In this document: positions 19,568-60,780 of the stretch, piece by piece | How positions within the stretch are numbered: position 1 is the first letter of the stretch | Layout: each line of letters begins with the position of its first letter | IMG/VR virus record: IMGVR_UViG_3300018876_000008 | Span: 1 to 64,000 of that record | Source of the DNA: a virus | Reading direction: 5' to 3' (one strand) | DNA: 64,000 nucleotides | Program-made: the position numbers and the translations under genes | Notes under the pieces: generated by a model | Seen by the model: only the letters and a program-made list of their open reading frames with translations | Databases searched by the model: none | What the model was told of the DNA's origin: nothing

Positions 19568-20487
19568 CAAAAATAATAGTTACAGGTGGAATGGGATTTA
19601 TAGGGTCTCATTTCGTTAATAAATTAAGTGAAAGGTTACCTAATAGTGAAATAACGGTAATTGATAAAATGACATATGCTGCGAATATTAATAACGTAAA
19701 ATGTGATTTTAATTTTATTGAAGAGGATATATGTAACTTAACTGAACTACCTAACTGTGACTATATAGTTCACTTTGCCGCCGAGTCTCATGTGGATAAT
19801 TCTATAGAAAATGGAAGACCATTTGTTCGTACTAATGTTGAGGGTACATTTAATTTGGTTGAACTAGCTAAAAATATAAAAGGTTTAAAAAAGTTCATCC
19901 ATATCTCAACTGATGAGGTTTACGGTGATATGGATTATTATGGTTCAGATTCAGTAGCTGAGGAAACATTTAATCTTATTGGTTCTTCATATTATTCAGC
20001 AACTAAAGCTGCGTCAGACTTAATTGTACAATCCGCAGGAAGAACTTTTGGTTTACCTTATGTTATTACAAGAACTTGTAATAACTTTGGAGAAAATCAA
20101 CACGAAGAAAAAATGATACCTAAAATTATAAAGAATATAAAAAATGATATTCCTATTCCGGTCTATGGTGATGGTAACCAAGTCAGAGAGTGGATACATG
20201 CAGATGACAACGCTGAGGCAATAATAAATATTATGTTATCTGAAGACACTATCAATGAAGTTTTCAACATAGGTAGTAGGTATCGTATAACTAATAATCA
20301 ATTGATTAATTTAGTTTCTGAAGTTGTTGGTAGAAAAGTTAAATTTGAGTATGTTGAAGATAGGTTAGGACATGATAGGAGGTACGCCTTGAATATTACA
20401 AAATATAATAGTAAGTTTGATAAGATAGACTATATTAATCTTAAAGAGTGGTTGAGTAAAATTATAACTAAAAATGAAGTGGGATAA
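19564..20487 (+). CDS. rmlB: dTDP-glucose 4,6-dehydratase
   Basis: TGGMGFIG, DKMTYA, HFAAESHVD, HISTDEVYG, YSATK, DRLGHDRRY. Confidence 0.9.
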   Translation: MTKIIVTGGMGFIGSHFVNKLSERLPNSEITVIDKMTYAANINNVKCDFNFIEEDICNLTELPNCDYIVHFAAESHVDNSIENGRPFVRTNVEGTFNLVELAKNIKGLKKFIHISTDEVYGDMDYYGSDSVAEETFNLIGSSYYSATKAASDLIVQSAGRTFGLPYVITRTCNNFGENQHEEKMIPKIIKNIKNDIPIPVYGDGNQVREWIHADDNAEAIINIMLSEDTINEVFNIGSRYRITNNQLINLVSEVVGRKVKFEYVEDRLGHDRRYALNITKYNSKFDKIDYINLKEWLSKIITKNEVG

Positions 20488-20929
20488 ATACTTTTTAAAT
20501 ATTGCAGAAAACGTAAAGTTAAAATCCAAAGACAGAAGGACTCAAATCGGCGCGGTAATAGTAGGAAAAGATAATGAAATTGTATCTACAGGTTATAATT
20601 CATTTCCAAGAGGTATTAATGATAATGTTGAAGAAAGACAAATTAGACCTGAAAAGTATTATTGGATTGAACATGCCGAGCGTAACGCAATTTATAATGC
20701 TGCACGTATTGGTGTTAGTTTAAGAGATACAACAATGTATCTAACCTGTGGAATACCATGTAGTGATTGTACTAAGGGTATCATAAGTTCAGGTATAAAA
20801 AAGATATACTGTAAAGTTCAGGATACCACAAGAAATAGAGAGCATTGGGATGAACACGCTAAAAGAAGTCTGCAAATGTTTAAAGAAAGTAATGTTGAAA
20901 TAATTTTTTATGATGAGAAAGAAAAGTGA
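20474..20929 (+). CDS. dCMP deaminase (ComEB-like)
   Basis: GYN, HAERNA and PCSDC zinc motifs. Confidence 0.9.
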   Translation: MKWDKYFLNIAENVKLKSKDRRTQIGAVIVGKDNEIVSTGYNSFPRGINDNVEERQIRPEKYYWIEHAERNAIYNAARIGVSLRDTTMYLTCGIPCSDCTKGIISSGIKKIYCKVQDTTRNREHWDEHAKRSLQMFKESNVEIIFYDEKEK

Positions 20930-21569
20930 TGATACGTGGCAAATTTTAAGAATTCAGGGAGAATTCACAAAAGGATTTGATACATTTAATGATTTAGGAC
21001 CGTGTGTCTCAGTTTTTGGTTCTGCTCGAACTGAAAAAGACACATGGTGGTATGATGAAGCTAAGAAATTCGGTAATCTTATCGCATCTAAAGGATTCGG
21101 AATTATCACAGGAGGAGGACCTGGTATTATGGAGGCGGCTAATCAAGGAGCTAAAGAGGTTGGTGCTAATTCCGTAGGAATTGGTATTGAGTTACCTTTT
21201 GAGTCTGGAATGAATCCACACGTTACTAAAGGATTGGAATGTAGATACTTCTTTACTAGAAAGGTAATGTTTTTAAAGTATTCACAGGCATTTGTGGTCT
21301 TTCCGGGGGGTTTAGGAACATTAGATGAACTATTCGAAGCGTTAACATTGGCACAGACAGGTCATTCACCAAAGTATCCTATAGTATTAGTAGGTAAGAA
21401 ATATTGGGGAGGTTTAATTGATTGGTTATATGATATGGTTAATCCTACAGGAAGAATGAGTTTAGATGATTTTGATTTATTTAGAATAGTTGATAATGCT
21501 GAGGAGGCGAGTGAGAAAGTTATTGAATTTATGGAAAAATATAGAAAAGAAAACACTAATAATTTTTAA
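20910..21569 (+). CDS. LOG family (TIGR00730) nucleotide monophosphate nucleosidase
   Basis: VFGSAR, TGGGPGIMEA, RKVM, PGGLGTLDE. Confidence 0.9.
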   Translation: MMRKKSDDTWQILRIQGEFTKGFDTFNDLGPCVSVFGSARTEKDTWWYDEAKKFGNLIASKGFGIITGGGPGIMEAANQGAKEVGANSVGIGIELPFESGMNPHVTKGLECRYFFTRKVMFLKYSQAFVVFPGGLGTLDELFEALTLAQTGHSPKYPIVLVGKKYWGGLIDWLYDMVNPTGRMSLDDFDLFRIVDNAEEASEKVIEFMEKYRKENTNNF

Positions 21570-35373: not shown

Positions 35374-35995
35374 TAGTCTGTCTATATAACTTCTTTTTAT
35401 CAAATCCATTTTTAACTAATAAATCATACATCCATTTTCTTTGTGTTGTTGAGACATCCTTAACAAATATTGAATCATTTCTATTGTTATCTCTGAAATA
35501 CTGTTCCATAGTTTCTAAAAGTCTATGAGAATCCTGAATATTTTTTAAACTGAATACTCTAAACACATCATTTATTTGTATTACCAATTTGTTATTTAAA
35601 GTCGAAATACTTTTCATTTCTTTTTTAATACAATATTTTGATATTAATTTATCAAATCCGATTCTTTTATTGGTTTGCCAATCAAATACTTTTTCTTCAA
35701 CTCGATAAGGTTTTATATCTTTTATGATATAGTCTGAATCGTCAGACATAAAAATTTCTTCATTACGCCCAATCTCGTCTTCAACGAATAGTGGTATTTG
35801 AAATGAGTCTTGATTACTTAATAATGCTAGTTCATATTTAGATTCTTCCGCATTTTCGTATCTTACCTCAAAATAACAATTATTATTTTTAATAAGAGAT
35901 TTAAATTTATCACGAGCACGTTTCTCTGACTGATAACCTTTGATTATCTTTTTCTTTTTCTTATTCTTAAATAATACAATTATATAATTCTGCAT
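35351..35995 (-). CDS. Hypothetical protein
   Basis: 214 aa ORF whose start codon overlaps the dnaJ start codon (CATG). Confidence 0.65.
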
Positions 35996-36947
35996 GAAGA
36001 ACTATTATCAAATTTTAGGTGTTAATAAAGACGCTTCTCAATCGGAGATTAAAAAAGCGTATAGAAAATTAAGTAAACAATATCATCCAGATGTCAACCC
36101 TCAAGGGGAAGATAAATTCAAAGAAATTGTTGAAGCTTATGATATTTTAGGTGATGAAGGTAAAAGAAAACAGTATGACAACCCAAATCCTTTTGGTGGT
36201 GGTAATCCATTTGATGCATTCAGTCAAATGTTTAATAGACAACGTAGACCACAAAAACCTAAGGTAAAAGATAGGATAATAAAAGTTACCTTAACTCCTG
36301 AACAATCCTTTAAGGGTCTTAATAAAGAATTAACATATAAATCTAAAGAATCTTGTCAAATGTGTGCCGGAACAGGAGGTAACAAAAATGTATGTACATC
36401 ATGTTCTGGAAGAGGAGTACACCAACAGAAAGTTGGTACGGGATTTTTTACTCAAATAGTTGAGACACAATGTCCAAGTTGCCAAGGTAGAGGTCAAATA
36501 GTGATTGACCCATGTATTAATTGTAATGGAGTAGGTGCAATCGATAAATTTAAAAACATTAGAGTTGATATACCTAAAGGGGTTGACACAGGAGATTTTT
36601 TAAGGGTTAATGGAAAAGGTGATTTTATAAATGGTATACAAGGAGATTTATTAGTACAAATTAATTTGATAAAAAGTAAGTATGAAAAGGTTGGTAATGA
36701 TTTGGTATTTCAACTGATAATTAGTCCTATTGACATGATTACTAACCAAACACTAATAGTCTCACACCCTGACGGGGACTTACAAATTAACTTACCAAAG
36801 GAGTTAAGTACGGAAAAACCCCTTAGAATAAAATCTAAAGGGTTTGTAACTAAGAGGGGTATTGGTGATTTTTATATCAAAATTTCAGTAATAAATAAAC
36901 AGATTACTGAAGATGATAAATCTAAACTTAAAGAATTATTTAAGTAA
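35994..36947 (+). CDS. dnaJ: DnaJ co-chaperone with zinc-finger domain
   Basis: J-domain with HPD, short G/F region, four CxxCxGxG repeats, C-terminal domain. Confidence 0.92.
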
Positions 36948-38954: not shown

Positions 38955-39032
38955 TTACATACACTTCTTATACAATATAAAAAATAGAATATTTTTAATT
39001 TATAACATATTTATATGAAAACGAATAGAGAT

Positions 39033-40361
39033 ATGAAGTTTAATAAAATCATTAAAAGTATTATAGTAGAACAGGGTCGTTATGAGATTCTGAAAAAAAC
39101 CTATACTCAACCTAAAAAAAAAGGTGAGAAGGTTAAGCCCGCAAAAATGTCACTTGAACAACTTAACAAAATAGTTTTAGCTGACCCAACCACTCGAAGA
39201 GACGGTGAAAATATTAAAAAGGCAGGAAAATACGTAAATTGGATTATAAAACAATTTTTACAGATTGAACCAAAAATAGAGTCTCAATATGGTTCGCCTC
39301 AATTCAAAAAAGATTTAAAGGAGAAAACTGATTTGTTTTTTGAGGATTTGTATAAAACTACTGAAGATTTAACTAAATTTGATAGATTTAAAGGCCAACT
39401 AGATAGTGAATTAAGAGATATAAACAAATTAACTATTGATACTTTATTTAATTCAGTTAAAGACTTTAGTTTAGAAAAAGCCACGACTACTAAAGCTGAA
39501 AGAAAAAAGATGGATGTACATCCAGGGGCTGAACAAGTCTATAGCGGTTCTAAATATGATGTTTATATGATTGAAGACCAAGGAGACCTTGGTAAAGAAG
39601 CCGCATGTTTCTATGGGGGACAAAATAAAGAAACACGTTGGTGTACATCAGCACCTGGTCTCTCATATTTTAACACTTACATTAAGCAAGGTCCTTTATA
39701 CGTATTAATTGATAAGACTGACACCGAAGTAGGTGATGTGTCAGGATTACCAAAACATAGATATCAATTCCATTTCCCAAGTAATCAGTTTATGGATATT
39801 AATGATAGACAAATTAATCTAGTGGAATTTTTACTTGGAGAAGAGGAAGGGTTAAGAGAGTTCTTTAAACCTGAATTTATGAAGGGACTATCTAGTGCGG
39901 ACGGAACAGAGGTTACGGTTGAATACCCAAGAGATGCCGCTTCAAAGTTTATTGCCTTATATGGGTTTGATAAATTCTTTGAAGATTTACCTAATAATTT
40001 AGGTAGGTTAGATTTTATTAAAGGAAGTTCAGGTAGGTATGGTCAACAAGATAATAAAGACCTTAACATAAAAATACCAGAAAGTATTGGTAGATTCAAA
40101 AATATGTACGCATTACACCTTGACGGTATATTAGATGAGTTACCTTCAAGTATATCAAACTTAGAAGACTTAATGTTTTTATCACTTCCTAATAATAAAA
40201 ACCTTAAATCATTACCTAAAGAAATGGCGGAAAAGAATGGTGATGATTACAAAATGAAAAATTTAGCAGTTATAACTCTGGCAGGAACTAACCCTAATAT
40301 AGAAATTCCTGAAGAGGTTCAAAAAATGATTGACGAAAAAGGTATCAAAGTTTTTAAGTAA
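39033..40361 (+). CDS. Phage protein with CxYGxxxxxWCT domain and C-terminal leucine-rich repeats
   Basis: ACFYGGQNKETRWCTS; IPESIGRFKNMYALHL, LPSSISNLEDLMFLSL, LKSLP. TATTTATA at 39008-39015 favours a start at 39033 (track 39015). Confidence 0.65.
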   Translation: MKFNKIIKSIIVEQGRYEILKKTYTQPKKKGEKVKPAKMSLEQLNKIVLADPTTRRDGENIKKAGKYVNWIIKQFLQIEPKIESQYGSPQFKKDLKEKTDLFFEDLYKTTEDLTKFDRFKGQLDSELRDINKLTIDTLFNSVKDFSLEKATTTKAERKKMDVHPGAEQVYSGSKYDVYMIEDQGDLGKEAACFYGGQNKETRWCTSAPGLSYFNTYIKQGPLYVLIDKTDTEVGDVSGLPKHRYQFHFPSNQFMDINDRQINLVEFLLGEEEGLREFFKPEFMKGLSSADGTEVTVEYPRDAASKFIALYGFDKFFEDLPNNLGRLDFIKGSSGRYGQQDNKDLNIKIPESIGRFKNMYALHLDGILDELPSSISNLEDLMFLSLPNNKNLKSLPKEMAEKNGDDYKMKNLAVITLAGTNPNIEIPEEVQKMIDEKGIKVFK

Positions 40362-40776: not shown

Positions 40777-42210
40777 ATGTACTGTAGAGATAATAGTTAT
40801 AGTGATGGTATCGACAGATTTATAGTTATTACTGTCGCTACAGAAAATAACAAAGAATTAGACCGATTTAGAGAATCGTGTCATATTAATAATATACCCT
40901 ACAAGATTATTGGTTTAGGTCAAGAATGGACAGGAGGTGAGGCTAAAGATGGGGTATTGTTACAACCTGGAGGAGCACAAAAAATAAATCTTCTTAAGAA
41001 AGAATTAGAGGATTATCCTAATTTATCTAATCACATAATTTTATTTACAGATTCATATGATGTAATAATTAATTCAACACCAAGTGAAATAGTTAGTAAA
41101 TTTAGGACTATGAAATCACCCGTAGTATTTTCAGCTGAAAAAACTTGTTGGCCGAAAAAAGATTTACAAAATAAGTACCCACCATCAACTACGGAGTATA
41201 AATTTTTAAATTCAGGAGGATTTATTGGTTACGGAGACCACATAATTAAAATTGTAAATAAAATTGATGTAAGCAATGATTACGATGACCAACTATATTA
41301 CACTGAAAGATACTTTGAGTCTTTAGCTGAAGATAAGAATATCATTTTAGATAATAATCAAAATATATTTCAAACCCTTAATGAATCCTTAGATGATGTT
41401 TTGGTGAAGGACGGTAAAGTTTTTAACAGAATAACAAATACGTATCCTTTAATAATTCATGGAAATGGTGGTTCGTCAATAAAAAATGTCCTAAATGATT
41501 ATTACCGCAGGTTATTTGATAAAGATGTTACAACTATAAATTATTTTAAGAAGGAAGATGACTTGGAGGATTTTGAGGATAATGTTAATATAGGATTATT
41601 TCTTGATGAGGAAGTCCCTAACATTAATCAAACTTTCGACCACATTAGATTTTTAAAATACCCTAAAGATAAAATATCCCTCACAATATATTATTCTGAT
41701 AACACACACAAGTATGATATTGATTTGTTTGAGAAAAAATATTCACATATTTTTAAAGAGTTTTATGTAAAATTTAATGACGATGGTAAAATAAAGTCAC
41801 GAAAAGACTTTTTGATTAATTCTTATGGTCTGTCTGATTATACAGTTTTAATGGAATCAAATCACATTTTTAGAAATAATAAATCTTTAGGGTTGATTAT
41901 CAAAGAGTGTGAAGGTATAATAACTCCTATGATTCATAAAGAAGGTAGTGATTGGGTTAATTTTGATTGTGAAAAGACTAAAAAGGATTCTTACAGGACT
42001 TATGAAACTAAAGGAATATGGGAGGTAAATTATCTTTACGGTATACACGTCATAAAAAATGATTTAATTCCTTACTGTGTAAATTCTTTATATATTAATT
42101 ACGATAACTATACAGACCCTAATTGGGACATTATGTTGTGTGATAATTTAAAAAGTAGAGGGGAAACTCTACAAATTTCAAATACAAACTATTACGGAGG
42201 AATTATATAA
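40777..42210 (+). CDS. PLOD3/LH3-like collagen hydroxylysine glycosyltransferase (GT + accessory domains, no hydroxylase domain)
   Basis: VITVAT, GLGQEW.GG, GGAQK, FTDSYDV, FSAEKTCWP, FLNSGGFIG, DDQLYY, IFQTLN, IHGNG; accessory domain LKYPKD, PMI....W.NF, GIWEV.Y, ISN...YG. Confidence 0.88.
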   Translation: MYCRDNSYSDGIDRFIVITVATENNKELDRFRESCHINNIPYKIIGLGQEWTGGEAKDGVLLQPGGAQKINLLKKELEDYPNLSNHIILFTDSYDVIINSTPSEIVSKFRTMKSPVVFSAEKTCWPKKDLQNKYPPSTTEYKFLNSGGFIGYGDHIIKIVNKIDVSNDYDDQLYYTERYFESLAEDKNIILDNNQNIFQTLNESLDDVLVKDGKVFNRITNTYPLIIHGNGGSSIKNVLNDYYRRLFDKDVTTINYFKKEDDLEDFEDNVNIGLFLDEEVPNINQTFDHIRFLKYPKDKISLTIYYSDNTHKYDIDLFEKKYSHIFKEFYVKFNDDGKIKSRKDFLINSYGLSDYTVLMESNHIFRNNKSLGLIIKECEGIITPMIHKEGSDWVNFDCEKTKKDSYRTYETKGIWEVNYLYGIHVIKNDLIPYCVNSLYINYDNYTDPNWDIMLCDNLKSRGETLQISNTNYYGGII

Positions 42211-44780: not shown

Positions 44781-45917
44781 ATGAAAATTAAATTAGAATA
44801 TATTTGGTTAGATGGGTATAAACCCGAACCAAATCTTAGAAGTAAAGTAAAGGTTGTAGATGCACCTACCCATGAAGTTAAGGGTAAAACATTACACGGA
44901 ATAACATTAAAAGATTGTCCTCAATGGGGATTTGATGGTTCATCAACTAAACAGGCTGAAGGTAATTTTTCTGATTGTATCTTAAATCCTGTTAGGTTAT
45001 ATCCTAATCCACTTAACAAAGGTATATTAGATTCATACCTTGTTTTTTGTGAAGTTATGAATCCTGATGGTACTCCACATGAGTCTAATACTCGTAATTT
45101 ATTAGGTAAGGAAGATGATAAAGACTTATGGTTTGGTTTCGAACAAGAATATACCATCATGAAAGACAGTAAACCTATCGGATTCCCAAAAGATGGATTC
45201 CCTGAACCTCAAGGTAAGTATTACTGTGGTGTTGGTAATGGTCAAGTAAACGGTAGATTATTCGTTGAACAACATATGGAAAATTGTATTATGGCAGGTA
45301 TTGAAGTTACAGGTACTAATGCTGAAGTAATGTTAGGTCAATGGGAATACCAAGTATTAGGTAAAGGTAAACTAAAATCAGGTGATGACCTTTGGGTATC
45401 GAGATATATTTTAAATCAAATGTCAGAGGATTATGGTTTTAAAATAGAATACCACCCTAAACCTGTAACTGGTGATTGGAATGGTTCAGGATTACATTGT
45501 AACTTTTCTAATATTAAAATGAGAGAAGAAGGGGGTAAAGAATATTTTGATGCAATATTTAAAACATTTGAGTCAAGACATATTGAACACATAAAATGTT
45601 ATGGTTCTTCAAATGACATGAGGTTAACTGGTGACCACGAAACTCAATCAATTCATAAATTTAGTTGGGGAGTATCGGACAGAGGAGCATCAATTAGAGT
45701 TCCAATATCCACAGAAAAAGAATGGAAGGGATATGTTGAAGACAGGAGACCTGCTTCTAACGCAGACCCCTATAAAATCATTAACATTATTAATGAATCT
45801 ATAAATAACGCAGAAGAACTATACAAAACATTACACAATATGTATAGCGATGTAAAAGTAAGTGATGAAGTCAAAGAAATGGTTTTGACTGAACCATTAG
45901 AAAGAGATACTGAATAA
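44781..45917 (+). CDS. glnII: Glutamine synthetase type II
   Basis: LEYIWLDG, LRSK, WGFDGSST.QAEG, FEQEY, NAEVMLGQWEYQ, HPKP..GDWNGSGLH, RLTG.HET, DRGASIR, EDRRPASN.DPY. Confidence 0.92.
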   Translation: MKIKLEYIWLDGYKPEPNLRSKVKVVDAPTHEVKGKTLHGITLKDCPQWGFDGSSTKQAEGNFSDCILNPVRLYPNPLNKGILDSYLVFCEVMNPDGTPHESNTRNLLGKEDDKDLWFGFEQEYTIMKDSKPIGFPKDGFPEPQGKYYCGVGNGQVNGRLFVEQHMENCIMAGIEVTGTNAEVMLGQWEYQVLGKGKLKSGDDLWVSRYILNQMSEDYGFKIEYHPKPVTGDWNGSGLHCNFSNIKMREEGGKEYFDAIFKTFESRHIEHIKCYGSSNDMRLTGDHETQSIHKFSWGVSDRGASIRVPISTEKEWKGYVEDRRPASNADPYKIINIINESINNAEELYKTLHNMYSDVKVSDEVKEMVLTEPLERDTE

Positions 45918-47904: not shown

Positions 47905-50900
47905 ATGGCTAAAGACGTAAGAATAGTACCACAACCCACAGGAACTACACTTCCTTATATTTTATTTGAAAATGCAAATGGTGATGTTATGTCACTTAAT
48001 GTTAGTGATGATGGTCGCATAGTATTTTCAGGTGCCACTCATGGTAATAATTTAGTAACCATAGATAGTGACCGTGTTAATATTAAAGGCTCAATACATA
48101 TGGGTAATGACATGGGATTCAACGGGGTTATGACTATTACCGATACTGGAGGGTGGAAAGGTAGTACAGTCGGATTAAAAGGTAATAAAGGTACTGTAGG
48201 ACCAACAGGTCCAAAAGGACATCAAGGACCAACAGGCCCCGCAGGTGCAAGAGGGACAACCGTTAAAGGTGAAAGTGGTGATAAAGGAAGAAAAGGTCTT
48301 AAAGGTCTTAAAGGGCTTAAAGGTAATATTGGTACCAGTAGAATATTTTATAATGATGGAGATAAAGGGTTAAAAGGAAAACAAGGACCACAATCAACTG
48401 ATAAAGGAGATAAAGGACTTAAAGGTCTTAGAGGTGTTAAAGGCGAAATAGGTCAATTAGGTCCAATAGGTATACAAGGACCACAAGGCCCTGTGGGTTT
48501 AAAAGGAATTAACTCAGATAAAGGTATAGTTGGTGATAAAGGGGATAAAGGATTAAAAGGTCTAAAAGGTTTAAAAGGGTTAAAGGGTCCTGTCGGATTA
48601 AAAGGTAAAAAAGGTATTTTGGGACCACAAGGTCCTATTTCTCAAGCCGGTAATGTTGCGGATAAAGGAACAAAAGGTCCAAAAGGGCCACAAGGTCAAA
48701 AGGGACCAAAAGGAATTCAAGGACCACAAGGTACAAAAGGGTTAACCGCAAACACAGGAGGTCAAGGACCAATAGGGCCTAAAGGGCCAACAGGGAGTAA
48801 AGGTATTAAAGGACTTCGTGGTAACAAAGGGGTTAAGGGACTTAAAGGACTTAAGGGGCTTAAAGGTCGTAAAGGTCTTATTGCGGTAACTGGTGATAAT
48901 GGTCAACAAGGCCCAATCGGTCAACAAGGTCCCATTGGTTTTAAAGGTGATAAAGGACTTAAAGGTTTAGAAGGACCAAAAGGACCAAAAGGTATCAAAG
49001 GTCCTCAAGCCGAAACAACCGTTCAAGGACCACAAGGTTCACAAGGACTACAAGGAAATACTTCTACCGATAAAGGTATCAAAGGTCAGAAGGGATTAAA
49101 AGGTAATAAAGGTATAAAAGGATTAAAACCTAATAGTGGTGAAAGAGGGAATATAGGAGAAACAGGACCTAATGGGCCTCAAGGTATTCAAGGTCCGAAA
49201 GGAGATGATAAAGGTCAAAAAGGTTTTAAAGGTATAAAAGGTAAAAAAGGAGTTAAAGGAGCCATAGGTCCACAAGGTGAAATTGGTAATCAAGGTAATA
49301 TTGCTACCACTGGTGATAAAGGTCTTAAAGGATTATTCGGTCCAACAGCATTTAAAGGATTAAAAGGGTTAAAAGGTAATAAAGGATTAAAAGGTCCAAA
49401 AAATATTCAAGGACCACAAGGACCTGTCGGGTTGGATGCGGATAGAGGTTCGATAGGTAATCAAGGACTTCAATCGACCGATAAAGGATTAAAAGGTCCA
49501 AAAGGTCCAAAAGGAATTAAAGGATTAAAAGGTTTAAAACCTGGAAGAGGACCCCAACCTAGTGTAGGGTCGAGGGGAGTTCAAGGACCACAAGGACCAC
49601 AAGGACCGCAAGGGCCTACATCAGCAGATAAAGGATTTAAGGGACTTAAGGGACTTAAAGGTATTACAGGTGTAAGAGGAGAACAAGGTATAGGTGGACA
49701 AAGAGGAACTCAAGGGACACAAGGACCAACAGGAAATAGAGGTAATACAGGTACTAGCTCAGATAAAGGAAATAGAGGTCCCCAAAGTACTGAAAAAGGA
49801 TTAAAAGGACCTGACGGAGGTAGAGGACCTCAATCGACCGATAAAGGACAAAAGGGACCTCAAGGAAGTAGAGGGGCAAAGGCCTCAACAGGTGACCAAG
49901 GACCAACCAGTACTGATAGAGGGAATCAGGGTGAAACCGGTCCTAATGGGCCAAATTCAACTGATAAGGGACAAAAAGGACCTAGAGGAGGAATAGGTAC
50001 TCAAGGACCTAAAGGTTATAAAGGACCACAAGGACCTGCTAACAATGACAGAGGCCCGGTAGGTGATAAAGGTTTTAAAGGACCAAAAGGAAATAGAGGT
50101 GCTATCGGTGGACAAGGTTCAGTGGGTAACACTTCTACCGTTAAGGGTTCTATAGGTCCCTCTAATACTACAAAAGGTCTTAAAGGAATTAAAGGTAGAA
50201 AGGGTAGTGAAGGTCCAAGAGGACCAGAAGGCCCTCAAGGACCAAGAGGTACAGCATCTACAGTTAAAGGATATAAAGGACCTAGTAATAGTGTTAAAGG
50301 TATTAAAGGGTTAAAAGGTTTAAAAGGTTTAAAGGGCCCAAGAGGACCACAAGGTCCAAGAGGACCACAAGGTAGTACATCTACAGTTAAAGGTTCTATA
50401 GGAAATCCTAATAACTTGCAGGGTTTAAAAGGTTCAAAAGGTTTAAAAGGTCTAAAAGGTAGTACAGGACCAAGAGGTCCACAAGGGGCGAGAGGTAATG
50501 TGTCGACAGTTAAAGGATATAAAGGTTTAGCCAATAATACAAAAGGAAATACAGGAGAAACGGGACCTCAAGGTTTAAAAGGTCGACAAGGTAGTCAAGG
50601 ACCACAAGGTCCAAGAGGAACGGCTTCTACTGTTAAAGGACCAAAAGGATTGACAAATACAACTAAAGGTCCAAAAGGTCTTAAAGGGTTAAAAGGACTT
50701 AAAGGAACCAAAGGTCGAAAAGGAGACAAAGGGTTAATAGGTAATCAGTCCACAGTCAAAGGATATAAAGGACCTAATAATACTACAAAAGGACCTAAAG
50801 GACCTAAAGGGTTAAAAGGGTTAAAAGGAAATTTTGGACCTGCAGGATTTAAAGGATTTAAAGGTCCACAATCAACAGTCAAAGGTGCTATAGGTGAACA

Positions 50901-51765
50901 AGGAGTTAAAGGACTAAAAGGAATAAAAGGATATAAAGGACCTGACGGAGGTAGAGGACCTCAAGGAAATAAAGGTGTAAAAGGTCCTGTTGGAAGACCT
51001 GGACCTACCGGACCAACAAATACAACTAAAGGTTTAAAAGGACCAACAGGCCCAAATGGACCTCAAGGACCGAGAGGAGGAATAGGACCACAAGGTATTA
51101 AAGGTCAGAGAGCCCAACAAGGACCATTAGGAGATGTTGGTGATGAGTATGGTCCAAAAGGTCGTAAAGGTGCTATAGGACCTACCAATACAGATAAAGG
51201 TCCAAAAGGACCTATCGGTCGTGATAATCTAACTAAAGGTGCGAAAGGACCTAAAGGTGATATAGGTCCTGTCCTCGTAAAAAATGGACCTGGTGACCAA
51301 GGACCAACAGGTCCAAGAGGAAATAAAGGACCCAAAGGTCCGATAGGTAGAACGGGACCAACAGGACCTATAGGGGGTACAGGACCACAAGGTCCACAAG
51401 GTCCAAGAGGGGCTCAAGGGGTACAAGGACCTCAAGGACCTGCTTCAGATAAGAGAGTTAAAAATAATATTAAGTCTTTAAAGGGTAATTTATCTAAATT
51501 AAAAAATATTAGAGGTGTTAAATTTACATGGAAGGGTGGAATAAATCACAGATTTAATATAAAAGGAAATGATATCGGTTTTATCGCTCAAGAAATTGAT
51601 AAAGTTATACCTGACGTGGTATTTACTGGTGAAGACGGATTCTTAAAATTAGAATACGGTAAGTTAGTTGCTATTGGGATTGGTTCAATACAAGAGCAAC
51701 ATACACGTATAACTCAACTTAAGGAGAGAATTAACATATTGAAATCAAAAGTTTTAAATGGGTAG
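47905..51765 (+). CDS. Giant Lys-rich collagen-like fibre protein 1 with C-terminal peptidase S74 intramolecular chaperone
   Basis: Gly-X-Y from aa 90 to 1180; SDKRVKNNI, GFIAQE, LEYGKL and a terminal coiled coil. Confidence 0.88.
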   Translation: MAKDVRIVPQPTGTTLPYILFENANGDVMSLNVSDDGRIVFSGATHGNNLVTIDSDRVNIKGSIHMGNDMGFNGVMTITDTGGWKGSTVGLKGNKGTVGPTGPKGHQGPTGPAGARGTTVKGESGDKGRKGLKGLKGLKGNIGTSRIFYNDGDKGLKGKQGPQSTDKGDKGLKGLRGVKGEIGQLGPIGIQGPQGPVGLKGINSDKGIVGDKGDKGLKGLKGLKGLKGPVGLKGKKGILGPQGPISQAGNVADKGTKGPKGPQGQKGPKGIQGPQGTKGLTANTGGQGPIGPKGPTGSKGIKGLRGNKGVKGLKGLKGLKGRKGLIAVTGDNGQQGPIGQQGPIGFKGDKGLKGLEGPKGPKGIKGPQAETTVQGPQGSQGLQGNTSTDKGIKGQKGLKGNKGIKGLKPNSGERGNIGETGPNGPQGIQGPKGDDKGQKGFKGIKGKKGVKGAIGPQGEIGNQGNIATTGDKGLKGLFGPTAFKGLKGLKGNKGLKGPKNIQGPQGPVGLDADRGSIGNQGLQSTDKGLKGPKGPKGIKGLKGLKPGRGPQPSVGSRGVQGPQGPQGPQGPTSADKGFKGLKGLKGITGVRGEQGIGGQRGTQGTQGPTGNRGNTGTSSDKGNRGPQSTEKGLKGPDGGRGPQSTDKGQKGPQGSRGAKASTGDQGPTSTDRGNQGETGPNGPNSTDKGQKGPRGGIGTQGPKGYKGPQGPANNDRGPVGDKGFKGPKGNRGAIGGQGSVGNTSTVKGSIGPSNTTKGLKGIKGRKGSEGPRGPEGPQGPRGTASTVKGYKGPSNSVKGIKGLKGLKGLKGPRGPQGPRGPQGSTSTVKGSIGNPNNLQGLKGSKGLKGLKGSTGPRGPQGARGNVSTVKGYKGLANNTKGNTGETGPQGLKGRQGSQGPQGPRGTASTVKGPKGLTNTTKGPKGLKGLKGLKGTKGRKGDKGLIGNQSTVKGYKGPNNTTKGPKGPKGLKGLKGNFGPAGFKGFKGPQSTVKGAIGEQGVKGLKGIKGYKGPDGGRGPQGNKGVKGPVGRPGPTGPTNTTKGLKGPTGPNGPQGPRGGIGPQGIKGQRAQQGPLGDVGDEYGPKGRKGAIGPTNTDKGPKGPIGRDNLTKGAKGPKGDIGPVLVKNGPGDQGPTGPRGNKGPKGPIGRTGPTGPIGGTGPQGPQGPRGAQGVQGPQGPASDKRVKNNIKSLKGNLSKLKNIRGVKFTWKGGINHRFNIKGNDIGFIAQEIDKVIPDVVFTGEDGFLKLEYGKLVAIGIGSIQEQHTRITQLKERINILKSKVLNG

Positions 51766-54700
51766 AGATATTAACATAAATCCAACAGGTGGTACAATTC
51801 ATTTTTCAGGTCAATCAAATACTAAGATTGATGTGAAATATACTAGCGGTGAATTAAATTTTAATACTCACTTAGGTAACGACTTTAAAATAACGAATCA
51901 TTTAGAACTTGATAGTTTAAAATTTATGGCTGAAACCTCAGTTGTAAAAAATAATAGTGATGAATTAATTGACGACCGTGGTAACTGGAAAGGGCATGCA
52001 ATGAATATGGGAGGGCCAACAGGACCAACAGGGCCACAAGGACCTGTAGGGGCAAAAGGTGATGAACCATCTGCAGGTCAAAGAGGTGCAAAAGGTGAAA
52101 AAGGTATTAAAGGACAGACTTCATTAGAACAAGGACCTACGGGTGACGTTGGACCAAAAGGTCTTAAAGGTATTAAAGGTGAGAAAGCCTCCCAAGGACC
52201 ACAAGGACCTGCAGGGGTAAAAGGTTTAATTGGACCACAAGGTTCTGAAGGACCAGCTGGACCTGCCGCGATTAAAGGGGATATTGGGACACAAGGACCT
52301 AAAGGGTTAAAAGGTTTACAAGGTATTAAAGGTTCAATAGGTAATTCAATTAAAGGTCCTATAGGTGCAGATGCAGATAAAGGTAATACAGGACCTACCG
52401 GTAATAATAAAGGAGATATTGGACCTAAAGGTATTGTTGGGGATAAAGGTCCACAAGGACCAATTGGTCTTACAGCAAATTTAGATGTTTATGTTTTCTA
52501 TGATGCAACATCAATGCCAAGTGATAAGGCTAAAGAGGCTTCTCAAAGTGTTAGAGATTGGTTCCAAACGGTAAACGGTAATGGTGACATTAACAAATTA
52601 TACGAGGGTGTAATCGGTAAAAACAATGTTAATGGTGAAAACTGGTTATGGTGGGCATCTTATCCATATCTTGGTTCACTTAGTGGTGGTACGTTGAGTA
52701 ACGGAACACAGTTGAGTGAATTTAATAGTGCGGTACCTAACGCCACTTATGATTCCGATTATTGTAAATCTAATTCGGGTGGTAATTGTGTACCAAGAAA
52801 TTCACAATTTAATGATGGTCTAACCACATATAGAAGAATTAACAGAGGTCTTAATTTAGATACTGGTGCTGTAGAAAATATTTCTCAAGGGGTTCCTTTT
52901 GACCATAGTAATTTAAATAATACAGAAACATCGGGACAGGGTTCATTCGGTGGTGATAATACTAATTATTTAGTTATCATAGTCGCCGATGAGTCAGATG
53001 GTATTGTTGGTTTATATCATGGACAGTTAGGTGGGACACCAACCAACGCTACTAAGAGTGATTTATATAATAAACCATTTGAACTGAATGGTGATTATTG
53101 GAATAATAGTGCCGGTACTGAATATACTAATAGATATTTACACGACTACTGTGCATATATACAAGTTTATGAAGACATTATATCTAATAGACAAGGAAAT
53201 GCAAGAGGTTTAATATATCCTGTAGTAAATCCACTTAGAGGTACCGCCACATATGCATTTGTTCAACATGCGGTTGGTGCTGTTGAAGGTGAAACCATTA
53301 CTACTCAAGAATTTTTAAATAGTTACGGAGACCAAATGGATTCAGTTGGTCCTGAAAATTTAAATTTAACTGCATTAACACATACTAATGTATATTCAGC
53401 TTTAGCTTCTGAAAATTGTTATACGAGTTTAAATGTAGATTTTAAAAATGGGGCGGGGTTAAAACACTTTGGTTTTGGAGTTGACCCAACCGTAGATAAT
53501 TTTACTGAAGAGGTGGTAACAAATGCGTTAACATCATTTTTACGTCAACAAGGTGATACAGGTGACCAAGGTAATAAAGGTATTACAGGTGATGATAAAG
53601 GAACAAAAGGTCTTAAAGGTATAAAGGGACTAAAAGGTATTAAAGGACAAAGAGGTCCTAATACGGATTCAGGTTTAAAAGGTGCGATAGGTGACCAAGG
53701 ACCTGTTGGTATTGACGGTCCAATAGGTAACTTAAAAGGACCCAAAGGTGAAGTAGGTGTTGTTGGGCCAAAAGGTTTAAAAGGTCCTGATGGTAGTATA
53801 GGTGATTCACCAAAAGGTGCTGTTGGGTTAACAGGTGACCAAGGACCTACAGGTGGTAGAGGTGAAACATCGACAGATAAGGGTCAAAAAGGTATTAAAG
53901 GACAAAGAGGTGTTAAGGGATTAAAAGGATTAAAAGGTATCAAAGGGTTAATAGCAGTTCAAGGGGATGTAGGACCAACAGGACCTCAATCAGATAAAGG
54001 AATTGTTGGTGATAAAGGTAATAAAGGGCTTAAAGGTTTAAAAGGATATAAAGGTATCAAAGGAATTAAAGGTCCTATTGGTATAATTGCCGACCAAGGA
54101 GATACAGGACCCGTTTCTCAAAACGGTGAAGGTGCAGACAAAGGATTCAAAGGACTTAAAGGTATAAAAGGATTAAAAGGTAAGAAGGGTATTGAAGGAC
54201 CTAAAGGACCTACAGGTACATCTTCGGAAGAAGGTACTGTTGGACCTACAGGTGAAAAAGGAGAAAGAGGACCACAAGGAGATAAAGGTAATAAAGGTTT
54301 AAAAGGTCTTAAAGGTAAAAAAGGTATAAAAGGTACTAAAGGACTTAAAGGTTTAATTGCCAGTCAAGGAGATAAAGGACCACAAGGGCCAATTGGTGTT
54401 AAAGGTGAGCAAGGAAATAAAGGGGACAAAGGACTTAAAGGTATTAAAGGTCAAAAAGGTTATAAAGGATTAACCGGTCCTCAAGGTAACAAAGGTTTAA
54501 TGGCTTCTCAAGGAGATACAGGACCACAAGGACCGGCAAGTATTAAAGGTCAAAAAGGACTTAAAGGTATTAAAGGTCAAAAAGGATATAAAGGGTTAAG
54601 AGGTAATAAAGGTCCAAAAGGTTATAAGGGATTAAAAGGTATTACAGGTGATAAAGGATTTATTAGTACAGTTACCGGAGATAAAGGTATTAAAGGTCAA

Positions 54701-56941
54701 AAAGGGTTTAGAGCAACCGATGGAGATAAAGGTATAAAAGGGCAAAAAGGTTATAAAGGTAATCAAGGTCCAAGAGGAACTGCATCTACAGTAAAAGGTT
54801 TAAAAGGTCGTAAAGGTTTTAAAGGTAATAGGGCTACTGATGGTGTAAAAGGATTTAAAGGATTTAAAGGATTAAAAGGGTTACGAGGACCTTTGGGACC
54901 ACAAGGTAGTCAGGAGGGCCCAAAAGGATTAATAGGTGCAGAAGGCCCTATAGGTCCTACTGCCGATAAAGGTTTAAAAGGATTAAAAGGTATTAAAGGA
55001 CCCAAAGGACCTAAAGGACCTAAAGGATTAAGGGCAGGTGCAGTTGGACCAACAGGACCTAAAGGACCAATCGGACCTACTGCAGAAAAAGGATTTAAAG
55101 GTCTAAAAGGTCCAAAAGGTTATAAGGGACCTAAAGGACCTACAGGTTCCACAACAGGTGCTGAAGGAGATACAGGACCACAAGGTCCAACAGGTCCTAC
55201 CGCTTACAAAGGGTTTAAAGGGATAAAAGGATATAAAGGTCCGAAGGGTCCAAAAGGACCTCTTGGTTTGACAACAGGACCTAAAGGGTTAAAAGGACCT
55301 ATAGGTCAAACAGGACCAACTGCGAATAAAGGCCAAAAAGGATATAAAGGACCAAAAGGATATAAAGGACCTAAGGGTCCACTTGGACCGACTACAGGGG
55401 ATAAAGGACAAAAAGGTAAGAAAGGTTCGATAGGTGATAGTGCAAATAAAGGATTAAAAGGTCCAAAAGGGCCTAAAGGTTATAAGGGGCCTAAAGGAGA
55501 AAAAGGTCCTCATTCAAACAATAAAGGACCCGTAGGACCTCAAGGACCACTCGGACCTACCGCTGATAAAGGTGAACAAGGACCTAAAGGACCAATTGGA
55601 AATAAAGGACCTAAAGGACCAAAAGGAAGTGCAACCGGTGATAAAGGGCAACAAGGAGAGACAGGACCACAAGGACCTCTTGGAAAATCAGGACCAACTG
55701 GAGGTGTTGGAGATAAAGGTCCGAAAGGTGCCAAAGGTCCTCAAGGGTTAAATGGGATACAGTCAGGACCTACAGGACCACAAGGACCTGTTAATAACAC
55801 AAAAGGACAAAAAGGATATAAGGGACCTGAAGGTCCAATAGGTATACAAGGTCCCGAAGGAGAAATCGGTAATACGGAGGGAGCTCAAGGACCTAAAGGT
55901 AGTGTAAGTACGGTTAAAGGTCCTAAAGGACCTAAAGGTTATAAAGGACTGAAAGGATTATACGGTCCCAAAGGTTTAAAGGGTAGACAAGGACCGACTG
56001 ATATTAAAAAATTTATTGGTCAACAAGGTGATAAAGGACCAAGAGGAACAGATTCTACAGTTAAAGGACCGACAGGTCCACAAGGGGCTAAAGGGCCAAA
56101 AGGACCCATAGGACCTAAAGGAGCTAGAAAAACTCAAGGACCGACAGGTCCACAAGGGGCTAAAGGGCCAAAAGGTTACAAAGGACCTACAGGGCCACAA
56201 GGTCCAAGAGGTCAAAAAGGACGTGTAGGTGCAAGTGGACTTAGTGGTCCACAAGGGGAAAAAGGATTTAAAGGTAGGAAAGGACCTGCGGGACCTTCAG
56301 GTGTATCGTGTTATTCACACGATGTTGCACTTATAAGTGATAAAGCATTACCATGTAGCTTTTGTGATAGAGATGCGCCACCGTGTGGTGAGGAACCCAA
56401 CGTTACAGTATATTCTCCTAATTCAGGGGCATTAAGTGCGGGTAATTTTGTTTATACTGACTCAAATTGTACCGAATGTAGAACACCGAGACCTGGTTGT
56501 TTTGATGATAAGTCAGGCCAATTTACATTATGGGACGCTGACCATAATAATAGTTCTATACATACTTGGGATTTACAATTTTGTGGATTATTAAAGTGTG
56601 CGGATTGTTCCTTCTCAGATGAAAGACTTAAAACTGGTATTAGAACAATATCTAATTCATTAGAATCCTTATTAAACATTCAAGTTACTGAGTACGATTG
56701 GAATGAGAAATATTCGGGTTACGATTTCTTAAAAGAAAGACAAAAACTTCACTCTATTGGTATGATTGCACAAGATATCCAAAAAATATTTCCTGAAGTA
56801 GTTTACAAAAGAAGTGATGGTTACTACGCTATTAAATATTTCAAATTAAATGCACTAATAATAGAATCGATTAAGTCTCACCAAGTATTTATAGATGATA
56901 TTGATGAACAAATAAAATGGTTAAAAACACAAATTAATTAA
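51758..56941 (+). CDS. Giant Lys-rich collagen-like fibre protein 2 with inserted vWA-like domain, Cys-rich domain and S74 chaperone
   Basis: Gly-X-Y at aa 86-239 and 599-1517; insert with VFYDATSM and VIIVADESD; [15 protein letters not shown]. Confidence 0.88.
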
Positions 56942-59900
56942 TGGCTAATATTATTATATACCCTACAGGGAGTACTACTAATAGTAATCCTCACATTATA
57001 TTTACAGGTTCAGGTAGTAATGATTATACTATTGAAATAGATACTAGTGGTGATTTAATATTTAAATCGTCTAGCAATATTTTTAAAATTAAAGATAGTG
57101 CTCAACCATTTCAATTTGACGGTGAAGTAGATGTGGTTAATAGTGAATTATATGTGGGTAATACTATGGTTGTTGATTCAAATGGTAATTGGGTTGGAGT
57201 ATTATCAGGATTAAAAGGAATACAAGGACCAATTGGTGCAAAAGGAAGAGTTGGTGACCAAGGACCTAAAGGTGCAAAAGGTCAAGAAGGTCCTGTTGGT
57301 GAGCAAGGAGATAAAGGTAATCTAGGTATTAAAGGAAGAATAGGTTCTACAGGAATTAAAGGTGCAAAAGGACCTATTTCAGTTAAAGGTGATAAAGGTA
57401 ATAGAGGGCCTCAAGGGGAAGACGGAGCGGTAGGACCTAAAGGTTTAAAAGGTGTAAGACCTTCAGACAGTAGTAAAGGTATAAAAGGACCAAAAGGTTT
57501 AAAAGGAGAAACATCTAACGATAAAGGTTTAAAAGGACCTATAGGTTTTAAAGGTATTAAAGGTAATAAAGGACCGAAACAAGTTACAGGACCCCAAGGG
57601 TCTCAAGGAGGTATTTCGCCAAAAGGACCTATTGGGTTACAAGGTCCGACAAGTACTGACAAGGGTCAAAAAGGACCTAAAGGTATTAAAGGAGTAAAAG
57701 GTCAGAAAGGTATTGACGGTAATAAAGGTCCTGAAGGTGATAAAGGTTTAAGATATACTGATGGGGACCAGGGGCCACAAGGACCTACAGGTCCTACTGC
57801 AGACAAAGGTATTAAAGGTAACAAAGGTGTTAAGGGGTTATTAGGTCCACAGGGAATACAAGGACCTGATGGTACTGTTGGTACTCAAGGACCACAAGGA
57901 CCCTTAGGACCACAGGGTGTACAATCTTCAGATAAGGGAGATAAAGGTATTAAAGGTATTAAAGGTAGGAAAGGAATTAAAGGTCCTAAACAAGTACGTG
58001 GTAATATTGGTATACAAGGTGATAAAGGTTTTATAGGGCCACAAGGACCTGAAGGACCAGCAGGACCTGCAGCCGTTAAAGGACCTATAGGTCCACAAGG
58101 GCCGATTGGGCCAAAAGGTTTGGAAGGGAACCGAGGGCCACAAGGTTCATCATTAAAAGGACCAACAGGTTCGGGAGGTGAGAAAGGTCCGCAAGGTGAT
58201 AATAGTACAGATAAAGGTCCTATAGGTATAAAAGGACCGATAGGTATAAAAGGTTTTAAAGGACCTAGAGGACCACAATCAGAAGTAAGTGTTGGTGATA
58301 AAGGTAATACTGGACCCATAGGACCACAAGGACCGGCTAGTTCCGATAAAGGACTAAAAGGGCCTCAAGGGTTTAAAGGGTTAAAAGGTAAGAGAGGACC
58401 ACAAGGACCACAAGGAAATAATGAAAAAGGATTTATAGGTGATGGTGCACAAGGGGGAGATATAGGTCCAACAAATACTGATAAAGGACACCAAGGACCA
58501 ACTGGACCTGTCGGACCAAAAGGTTTTGTAGGTACTAAAGGTAGTATAGGTACGTCTCCTCAAGGTGATGTAGGAGATGGTGGTGACCAAGGACCTACTG
58601 CAAGTCAAGGGCCAGCAAGTACCGATAAAGGACTAAAAGGTTTAAAAGGATTTAAAGGGCCAAAAGGGTTTACAGGCCCTCAAGGAGGTATAGGACCTAG
58701 AATTACAGGACCCACAGGACCTAATGGACCTACCGGACCAACAAATACAGATAAAGGTTTAAAGGGTTTTCAAGGACCAACAGGTCCTACTAATACGGAT
58801 AAAGGCACACAAGGGTCTAAGGGGCCAAGAGGACCTCAAGGTGGTCAAGGACCAACAGGACCTAACGGACCTAAAGGTATAACAGGAGGTCAAGGACCTC
58901 AAGGACCTACTAGTACTGATAAAGGTGTTAAAGGTCAAAAAGGATATAAAGGACCTGAAGGGCCAACAGGAGAAAAGGGACCATTAGGACCAAAAGGATT
59001 ACAAAATAATACACAAGGAGACCAAGGACCCGTATCAAGTGATAGGGGTGATAAAGGGCCTAAAGGTATTAAAGGTATCAAAGGTGTTAAAGGACCTAGA
59101 GGTGAACAAGGAGCCAAGAATATTACAGGAGCAAAAGGACCAACAGGACCCCAAGGACCTGCTGGAAATAATAAAGGACCAATTGGACAATTAGGACCCA
59201 TAGGGTTTACAGGTCCACAAGGTTTAAAAGGTAGTACAAGTGATATAGGTAATAAAGGTCCGATAGGACCACAAGGACCCGCGAGTACGGATAGAGGGGT
59301 ACAAGGTAATATAGGTGCATTTATTGGACAAGGCCCCCAAGGACCTCAAGGACCAAATAGTTCAACAGGTCTTGTTGGTGCTCAAGGACCAATAGGACCT
59401 GCGGGTAACAATAAAGGACCAATCGGCCCTCAAGGTAATAGAGCGGATAAAGGACCTATCGGTCCTGTAGGGGAGAAGAATAATACTGGTGGACAAGGAC
59501 CAACCGGCCCACAAGGACCGGCTAGTAGTGATAGAGGACCCCAAGGACCCCAAGGTAATAAGGCACAAACAGGTGACCAAGGACCAATAGGTCCGCAAAA
59601 TATAGTAGGTGCTCAGGGACCCATAGGACCACAAGGGCCGGCTAGTTCAGACAAAGGACCAAAAGGACCATTAGGACCTATAGGACCTATAGGACCACAA
59701 GGCTCTATAGGTTCCAAGAATGCGACTGGTGGTGTTGGTGATAGAGGACTTCAAGGAGACCAAGGACAAAATAGAGGACCTCAAGGAGACCAAGGACCAA
59801 TACAGTCAGGAGGTTCTCAAGGTATACAAGGACTAAAAGGGTTAAAAGGACTAAAAGGAGGTAGAGGTACTCAAGGTCCAAATAGTTCTGATAAAGGACC

Positions 59901-60780
59901 AATAGGTCAAAAAGGGCCTAGAGGTCCACAAGGACCAAGAGGAGGAAATGGTATACCAGGACCACAGGGTCCAACAGGACCTAACGGACCGATTGGACCT
60001 GAAGGTAATAAAGGTATTAAAGGAATAAAAGGTTTTATAGGACCTAAAGGTCCCAAAGGACCACAAGGCCCACAAGGCCCAACCGGCCCACAAGGACCAC
60101 TAGGACCGTTAGGGTCAAGTAGTACAGATAAAGGAGAAAAAGGTTCAAAAGGACGTAAAGGACCGATAGGGATAACAGGAGCTAAAGGGCCAAAAGGTTA
60201 CAAAGGACCTAAAGGTTCAATAGGTCTTGATGGTGCGAATGCAGATAAAGGTATTAAAGGTCTAAAGGGTCCTTTACAACTTAAGGGACGTAAAGGTCCT
60301 ATTGGACCACAGGGTCCCACAGGCCCTAAAGGGTCACAAGGATTAATTGGACCTAAAGGTTATAAAGGTCCTACAGGTGGTGGAGGACTTCAAGGAGCCA
60401 CAGGACCTCAAGGACCTGCCGGAGCACAAGGACCAGCAGGAGGACCATCTGACAAAAGATTAAAAGAAAATATTGTTACCATTGATGAAGCACTTAAAAA
60501 AGTATTGAAATTAAGAGGAGTAGAATTTATATGGAGAAAAGAAGGTATTAATGGTGAAATCATTGATGAGGGTGGTAGAAAAGATATTGGTGTTATTGCA
60601 CAAGAAGTTAAAGAGGTTTTACCTGAATTAATTCTTGGTGACGAAGAAAGTGCTTATAGAGTAAGATACGGTGAAATGATATCAATATTATTTGAGGCTA
60701 TTAAAGAACAAGAATCAATACTAGATTTAAAAGAAGATGAGTTAGAAGAGTTAGAGAGAAAATTTAAAGATAATCAGTAA
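56941..60780 (+). CDS. Giant Lys-rich collagen-like fibre protein 3 with C-terminal S74 chaperone
   Basis: Gly-X-Y from aa 90 to 1169; [22 protein letters not shown]. Confidence 0.88.

Follow-up and report, generated by a model that had tools for sequence, protein, structure and literature searches.

Hydroxylysine-linked glucosyl-galactose (Glc-Gal) counts as a hallmark of animal collagens, and outside animals it is to our knowledge known only from mimivirus. Why, then, should a tailed phage encode an enzyme of the family that takes part in making it? The stretch of DNA analyzed here (the window) is the first 64 kb of the 169,337-bp IMG/VR virus record IMGVR_UViG_3300018876_000008 (CheckV completeness ~56%). 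It contains an open reading frame (ORF) whose product, termed GT-AC below, combines a glycosyltransferase (GT) domain and an accessory (AC) domain of the type found in human LH3/PLOD3, and stops where fused PLOD proteins continue towards their lysyl hydroxylase (LH) domain (Table 1). The locus raises the question whether this protein is a fragment of a broken PLOD or a module in its own right, and which substrate it serves. Our answer, which we consider likely when taken as a whole and which draws mainly on sequence comparisons, is that GT-AC is a functional, free-standing Mn2+- and UDP-sugar-dependent glycosyltransferase of the LH3/PLOD family, that its unfused state is old and stably inherited in a phage clade, and that it completes a hydroxylysine glycosylation of the animal kind, acting on the three giant collagen-like fibres that the phage itself encodes.

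The GT-AC protein and its separate hydroxylase

The Pfam model GT_PLOD (PF25342) matches residues 14–246 of GT-AC with an E-value of 3.6e-75 (252.8 bits, cut-off 27; 255.4 bits in the scan of the genome). A phmmer search of the PDB aligned residues 13–476 with residues 37–515 of human LH3 (E 1e-59), spanning both the GT and the AC domain, and also identified R699 of mimivirus (PDB 9dyt, E 8e-43); NCBIfam offered no model for either GT-AC or the phage LH. The AlphaFold2 model (pLDDT 92.4) comprises two Rossmann-type domains joined by a disordered linker, and Foldseek comparison with the PDB returned LH3 as the best match (TMq 0.72–0.78, ~488 columns), followed by R699 (0.61–0.63). LH3 (PDB 6fxk, 6fxr, 8zgc) is thus the best match over GT and AC in both sequence and structure, at ~28–31% identity, and shares with GT-AC all residues of the Mn2+, UDP and acceptor sites. 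Specifically, D92, Y94 and D95 of the DSYD motif align with LH3 D112, Y114 and D115, W125 of a CWP motif with W145, D170, D171 and Q172 of the DDQ motif with D190, D191 and Q192, and H228, N230 and G231 of the HGNG motif with H253, N255 and G256, so that the Mn2+ ligands of LH3 (D112, D115, H253), the UDP-contacting aromatic residues (Y114, W145) and the acceptor-side D190/D191/Q192 are all retained. Judged by two family alignments, of 17 and 65 sequences, D92, D95, W125, Q172, H228 and N230 are invariant in both, and Y94, D170, D171 and G231 are invariant in the smaller one and at least 90% conserved in the larger. The AC domain, non-catalytic in LH3 and probably so here, is conserved at positions of its own (P384 and N395 invariant; F396, N469 and G474 at least 90%). 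It is closed by a conserved YGG, and the stop codon follows three residues later, at the point where fused PLODs enter the linker; the chain carries no LH domain, ending in TAA after residue 477, and the next ORF encodes an unrelated, PcfJ-like protein. Compared with LH3, the alignment shows 4 additional residues in the glycoloop of the phage clade.

The missing module is encoded 27.4 kb away (40777 vs 13342), as a 211-aa protein that aligns with residues 523–736 of LH3 (E 2e-31) and with the LH domain of mimivirus L230 (E 1e-23). Its HxD...H Fe(II) triad and its 2-oxoglutarate (2OG)-binding Arg are intact and align with H667, D669, H719 and R729 of LH3, as do the motifs LHHDAS, THWHGG and QRYIIVSF. 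Read one after the other, the GT-AC and LH ORFs are collinear with a single PLOD chain, with only ~7 linker residues missing in the LH3 numbering. Directly upstream of LH lies a divergent paralogue, which keeps the HxD but has Tyr instead of the distal Fe-binding His in each of the six phages compared, two of which have lost the 2OG-binding Arg as well; such a protein is probably not a normal hydroxylase. Since LH domains act as dimers (PMC5802723), the paralogue may be a non-catalytic partner of LH, i.e. a pseudo-hydroxylase. Another candidate LH orthologue, encoded at 89228–89989 of the record on the minus strand, was rejected as a remote 2OG oxygenase (E 2e-14 to LH, ~1e-4 to 1e-5 to P4H and L230). 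This weakly P4H/LH-like ORF is one of three further 2OG-Fe(II) oxygenase-like ORFs in the record, the others being 138162–138743 (plus strand) and 139109–139825 (minus strand), the last of which matches 2OG-FeII_Oxy_3/4 and Ofd1_CTDD.

As for a complex of GT-AC with LH, for which the original prediction had suggested a test, structure prediction lent it weak support: the median score was 0.48 (runs 0.00, 0.48 and 0.52), and the best of three controls reached 0.02. In calibration, 58 of 80 solved complexes reached the mark applied, as did 2 of 110 mismatched pairs, with only 7 of those 80 solved complexes, and both mismatches, at scores of 0.60 or less. Contact agreement between the runs is at least 0%, with a partner pLDDT of at least 71, and the pass may reflect the LH3 structures, in which a single chain contains both AC and LH; we draw no claim of binding from it.

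The GT-AC architecture itself is already known from R699 of Acanthamoeba polyphaga mimivirus (PDB 9dyt, 9dzs, 9e92), which likewise consists of GT and accessory domains without LH, is of similar length (458-aa chain), conserves the DxxD, Trp and Tyr residues of the donor site, and belongs to a virus that also encodes collagen-like proteins, a GT25-like protein and, separately, a protein containing LH. R699 is described as a stand-alone GT-AC enzyme that is well expressed in E. coli, uses UDP-glucose (UDP-Glc) to glucosylate galactosylhydroxylysine on collagen and is an obligate homodimer in its crystal structures (PMC9546862; PMC12279948). A small collagen glycosyltransferase expressible in bacteria, which the original prediction saw on offer here, was thus already available. 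R699 nevertheless comes from a giant virus of amoebae and GT-AC from a tailed phage of bacteria; besides the longer glycoloop of the phage protein, the mimivirus LH is fused in L230, whereas the phage LH is separate, and R699 matches GT-AC with 150 bits, below the 205 bits of LH3, the phage clade forming a separate 100% group in a tree built without R699. A search for R699's own cluster among the representatives (see below) yielded P0236 and P0261, which are only 180–240 bits from R699. Mimivirus L230 and the megavirus procollagen-lysine 5-dioxygenase (~890 aa; LH domain PDB 6ax6) are likewise viral enzymes that modify viral collagen-like proteins, but these are long fusions, as are the ~900-aa GT25-GT-AC-LH forms common in the metagenomic set, whereas our phage has each module on its own gene. 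LH3, too, carries LH on the same chain, works in the endoplasmic reticulum of animal cells and binds a COLGALT1 dimer; in the phage, LH and GT25 are encoded apart from GT-AC, at distances of 27 kb and 107 kb. What appears to be new is therefore the setting, a tailed phage in which the other parts of the pathway have genes of their own, and our literature search found no paper on PLOD-type enzymes in phages.

Relatives, module architectures and trees

A word-indexed search revealed 547 relatives of GT-AC, among which more than 100 clusters are stand-alone forms of 465–481 aa with 44–98% identity, most of which come from marine data of Tara, ENA and JGI. The closest (P0001, 98% identical) is part of an independently assembled ENA contig of 412,709 bp, whose gene order agrees with that of the window, and a separate Logan contig contains it too. 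The neighbourhood is kept even in relatives whose GT-AC is only 59%, 45% or 32% identical, in the order Hc1, DnaJ, Dam methylase, leucine-rich repeat (LRR) protein, ~95-aa ORF, GT-AC, ~555-aa PcfJ-like ORF, thioredoxin, glutaredoxin. The stand-alone LH is similarly widespread (~100 clusters, 196–260 aa, contigs up to 430 kb). Orthologues 72–87% identical to it occur in five related IMG/VR records, always beside the paralogue and tens of kb from GT-AC; LH and paralogue together are present in 5 of the 12 related phage records with GT-AC, including the sole ~99%-complete one (G011, 297 kb). The split between GT-AC and LH is hence the conserved condition of a whole marine phage clade.

The tandem of GT and AC was seen only in viruses and eukaryotes. 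Full two-domain matches in BFVD were confined to giant-virus proteins (the R699-like protein of moumouvirus and the L230-like K7YEL3 of megavirus, TMq 0.62), with no named phage protein among the matches to GT-AC. Matches in GTDB species genomes, at 62 loci of which many are from Bacteroidota, were confined to the GT domain (query residues up to 274) and never included the accessory domain. Such GT_PLOD genes without accessory domain are found in Bacteroidota (Chitinophaga, Pedobacter, Sphingobacterium, Cyclobacteriaceae, Flavobacterium), in some Pseudomonadota and in Micromonospora.

An exhaustive HMMER scan of 1.84 billion representatives gave 2725 matches, and home-made profile hidden Markov models for GT, AC, LH and GT25 were used to call domain architectures on the fetched proteins. 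These include GT-AC, GT-AC-LH, GT25-GT-AC, GT25-GT-AC-LH, GT only and GT with an inserted methyltransferase, among others, and the closest GT-AC fused to LH is only 37% identical to ours. The methyltransferase-bearing forms belong to sister phages (P0040–P0096, ~626–699 aa) whose GT domain is interrupted, following residue ~182, by an insertion of ~150–215 aa; in the ~685–699-aa forms the inserted segment matches the S-adenosylmethionine-dependent methyltransferase families PF13489, PF08242 and PF13649. The 'longer' search started from LH uncovered ~50% identical LH domains placed C-terminally to GT4-type transferases (558 aa) or to GT25 plus GT4 (~790–830 aa); these GT4-LH and GT25-GT4-LH proteins (P0381–P0447), which are numerous in marine metagenomes, are analogues of PLOD with a different glycosyltransferase.

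The GT-AC tree (91 rows) places our protein in a group of 19 rows with 100% SH-aLRT support, of which 17 are unfused, two are fused to GT25 and none carries LH; all 38 LH-fused rows lie across the branch from this group, the animal GT-AC-LH proteins group apart with 99% support, and the tree as a whole requires at least 30 changes of architecture. The LH tree, calculated under a mixture model, likewise contains a 100% branch, which parts 35 PLOD-type LH domains (animal and GT25-GT-AC-LH) from a group of 46 rows comprising our LH, the other stand-alone LHs and the GT4 fusions. With both phage proteins thus excluded from the groups of PLOD-type fusions, it appears unlikely that a PLOD gene like those of animals or giant viruses was split recently. 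The distribution rather fits long-lived free modules that were fused repeatedly in different ways; since the trees are unrooted, the direction, i.e. fusion or ancient fission, cannot be read from them.

These results bear on the original prediction in several ways. The intact LH3-type motifs with a clean stop after the accessory domain are confirmed by the alignment with LH3 and by both family alignments, and the partner ~27 kb away by the separate LH, collinear with a PLOD chain. That the split might be an assembly artefact, which it had named as a refutation, is ruled out by the more than 100 clusters, the independent 413-kb contig and the synteny down to 32% identity. To treat the split as a singular event, by contrast, was an overstatement, given its conservation throughout the clade. 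Of the two origins it had offered, fission or a pre-fusion state, the former in its recent form is made unlikely by the 100% branches of the GT-AC and LH trees, and the dichotomy itself is too simple for a family with at least 30 architecture changes and many combinations of modules.

Candidate substrates, the predicted pathway and its alternatives

Downstream of GT-AC, at a distance of 5.7 kb, three ORFs that overlap or abut encode giant proteins in which collagen repeats precede a C-terminal Peptidase_S74 domain, the layout of phage fibres. Lysine occupies the Y position in 118 of 278 G-X-Y triplets of fibre 1 (42%), 146 of 297 of fibre 2 (49%) and 90 of 272 of fibre 3 (33%), while X is mostly Pro and Pro is rare at Y. 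The usual Y residue of bacterial collagens is Thr rather than Lys (PMC8968730), and X-Lys-Gly is the substrate motif of lysyl hydroxylases (PMC9546862). Giant collagen ORFs are present in all 12 related phage records with GT-AC, and the fibres of relatives are likewise rich in G-X-K.

The remaining activity, that of a collagen galactosyltransferase, would be supplied by a stand-alone GT25 protein encoded in the same record beyond the window; the top match of this protein in the PDB is human COLGALT1/GLT25D1, in its catalytic domain (PDB 9evj; 8zgc chain U; E 2e-8). COLGALT1 has an additional N-terminal GT domain, whereas the phage protein consists only of the catalytic GT25 domain. Sister phages have, at the orthologous locus, a GT-AC that carries GT25 as an N-terminal fusion (P0029, 718 aa, 59% identity), and this fused domain, too, has COLGALT1 as its best PDB match, with E 1.4e-29. 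GT25 is also present in the larger records G005 and G011, and, in two further ones (G009 and G012), as part of a 923-aa ORF of the same fused kind. The fusion links two steps, as would be expected of consecutive ones.

We propose that in the cytoplasm of the infected bacterium, on fibre chains before their trimerization, the separate LH would hydroxylate the abundant Y-position lysines (X-Lys-Gly), the COLGALT1-like GT25 would add galactose, and GT-AC would add glucose to give Glc-Gal-hydroxylysine (Glc-Gal-Hyl), unless hydroxylysine is glycosylated directly. The glucosylation of Gal-Hyl with UDP-Glc has its precedent in R699 (PMC9546862). Homology, intact catalytic residues, fold, gene co-occurrence and domain fusions are supported directly, and our assignments of donor sugar, acceptor and step order are modelled on R699, LH3 and COLGALT1. 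The most far-reaching version, which we advance tentatively as plausible but short of probable, is that the phages of this marine jumbo clade possess a complete and fully unbundled animal-type pathway, with LH, a COLGALT-like GT25 and an LH3-type GT-AC on genes of their own, which puts Glc-Gal-hydroxylysine on Lys-rich collagen tail fibres inside bacteria; it would be the first such pathway in a prokaryotic virus and a living example of the free modules behind PLOD- and L230-type fusions.

Several observations count against GT-AC acting last on the fibres. The phage's own GT25 is divergent and remote from GT-AC, the pathway genes are scattered and form no operon, and no GalE-type supplier of UDP-galactose (UDP-Gal) was found in the genome. 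GT_PLOD-only proteins occur in cyanophages and many bacteria with no known link to collagen. The donor sugar and the acceptor are not readable from the sequence, and the glycoloop, being longer than that of LH3, may bring a different specificity. Many of the related records are fragments, so that presence or absence of LH and GT25 in them is only partly informative, and the trees, which derive from 'quick' searches, are unrooted, have weak backbones, leave out R699 and may include truncated metagenomic rows.

The first of these points would also suit a variant with the same system and substrate in which GT-AC glycosylates hydroxylysine directly, while GT25 acts elsewhere or adds a different sugar. 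Mimivirus L230 is reported to make Glc-Hyl directly (PMC9546862), and the longer glycoloop could change acceptor recognition. We nevertheless think this variant unlikely, as the GT25 fused to GT-AC in sister phages is strongly COLGALT1-like, and as the counterparts of D190/D191/Q192 and W145, used by LH3 and R699 in glucosylating Gal-Hyl, have all been kept. Were GT-AC to act not on the fibres but on some other acceptor, such as another virion or host protein, a glycan of the host envelope or a free sugar, the lack of adjacency or a common operon would need no explanation, and the protein would join the GT_PLOD proteins widespread in bacteria (mainly Bacteroidota) and cyanophages; R699 is reported to have a side activity on free glucose (PMC12279948). 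This we regard as improbable, in view of the giant Lys-rich collagen ORFs in every one of the 12 related records, the presence of LH and GT25 in the same genomes, the GT25-GT-AC fusion, and the restriction of the GT-AC tandem to viruses and eukaryotes, with none in the 62 bacterial loci.

A last alternative concerns not the substrate but the gene: the stand-alone form could have arisen recently when a fused PLOD was broken, whether through fission, a frameshift, decay into a pseudogene or an error of assembly. The exact collinearity of GT-AC and LH with one PLOD chain, short of the ~7 linker residues, is what such a break would leave behind. Yet the same 465–481-aa ORF recurs in more than 100 clusters and in independent assemblies, its catalytic residues are invariant, tens of kb always separate LH from GT-AC in relatives, neither gene groups with the PLOD-type fusions on the trees (100% branches), and even the nearest LH-fused GT-AC has diverged to 37% identity, which together render a recent break highly improbable.

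If the phage enzymes are active as proposed for the fibres, the chemistry runs in bacterial cytoplasm on fibres of more than 1000 residues, whereas prokaryotic collagens are generally without hydroxylation and glycosylation and phage collagens are short (2022 review, PMC8968730). They would then also offer a prokaryote-adapted, modular set of separate small proteins (LH, galactosyltransferase, glucosyltransferase) for the production of modified recombinant collagen, and the unfused and variously fused relatives would help to trace how the multifunctional PLODs arose. The surrounding system is in this respect of more interest than the GT-AC protein alone, which repeats the architecture of R699.

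The source of the record and the neighbouring genes

Table 1. Features of the GT-AC system; positions refer to the window unless stated otherwise
Feature	Position	Strand	Evidence or remark
Stand-alone PLOD/LH3-type glycosyltransferase with accessory domain (GT-AC), 477 aa	40777–42210	+	ATG to TAA (stop 42208–42210); Pfam, LH3 and R699 matches, AlphaFold2, Foldseek
Catalytic GT-A domain, residues 14–246	40816–41514	+	DSYD 41050–41061, DDQ 41284–41292, HGNG 41458–41469
Interdomain linker, residues 249–258, predicted disordered	41521–41550	+	pLDDT < 50
Accessory (AC) GT-A-like domain, residues ~259–477	41551–42207	+	LH3 alignment to residue 515, family alignments, model, Foldseek
Stand-alone lysyl hydroxylase (LH) domain, 211 aa	12707–13342	+	LH3 and L230 matches; Pfam OGFOD2-like and 2OG-FeII_Oxy_3
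Divergent LH paralogue, 203 aa	11952–12563	+	directly upstream of LH; LH3 E 1e-9
Collagen-like fibre protein 1, 1286 aa, C-terminal Peptidase_S74 chaperone domain	47905–51765	+	Pfam Collagen E 5e-98 and Peptidase_S74
Collagen-like fibre protein 2, 1727 aa, Peptidase_S74	51758–56941	+	Pfam; triplet counts
Collagen-like fibre protein 3, 1279 aa, Peptidase_S74	56941–60780	+	Pfam; triplet counts
Stand-alone GT25 glycosyltransferase, ~250-aa catalytic domain	148568–149317 of the record, outside the window		107 kb from GT-AC

The source of the record is an uncultured marine or salt-marsh tailed phage of jumbo size, as follows from the genes for a large terminase (TerL, phrog_2), an SbcC-like nuclease and a DnaG-type primase, together with the Peptidase_S74 fibres. 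The relatives of the terminase are of the T4 type, and the nearest terminases among GenBank phages, those of Flavobacterium phage immuto and an uncultured 484-kb phage, do not exceed 30% identity; a megablast comparison of 18 kb of the window with GenBank phages gave no match. A SprB repeat protein in the record and a TonB-receptor gene in its relatives hint at a host from Bacteroidota. Near-identical copies of the GT-AC gene are present in salt-marsh and seawater metagenomes, one seawater contig differing from the window at 3 of 1534 positions. Metatranscriptome contigs from three runs (X16, X17 and X18; two studies, marine and salt marsh) cover parts of 40782–42199, which is a hint of expression rather than proof of transcription, because RNA libraries can contain DNA. 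Scanning for promoters and terminators produced nothing usable, sigma-70-like sites being fewer than in shuffled sequences.

Elsewhere in the window, the ORF at 19564–20487 was considered as a supplier of UDP-Gal and rejected, since it is closest to dTDP-glucose 4,6-dehydratase (RmlB-like; 295 bits, below the cut-off) and is not GalE. It belongs to a metabolic cluster (19564–21569) that encodes this dehydratase-like short-chain dehydrogenase/reductase, a dCMP deaminase and a protein of the LOG/'lysine decarboxylase' family. Upstream of GT-AC, a neighbour conserved in all relatives examined is a 448-aa protein (39015–40361) with C-terminal LRRs, recognized through weak matches to LRR_14 and to XopL/XopAE-like LRRs. 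Also in the vicinity are a DnaJ-type chaperone (35994–36947) and a glutamine-synthetase-like protein (44781–45917), both named by the Pfam matches of their orthologues in a related record (L013); together with the nearby thioredoxin and glutaredoxin genes they are kept across the phage clade.

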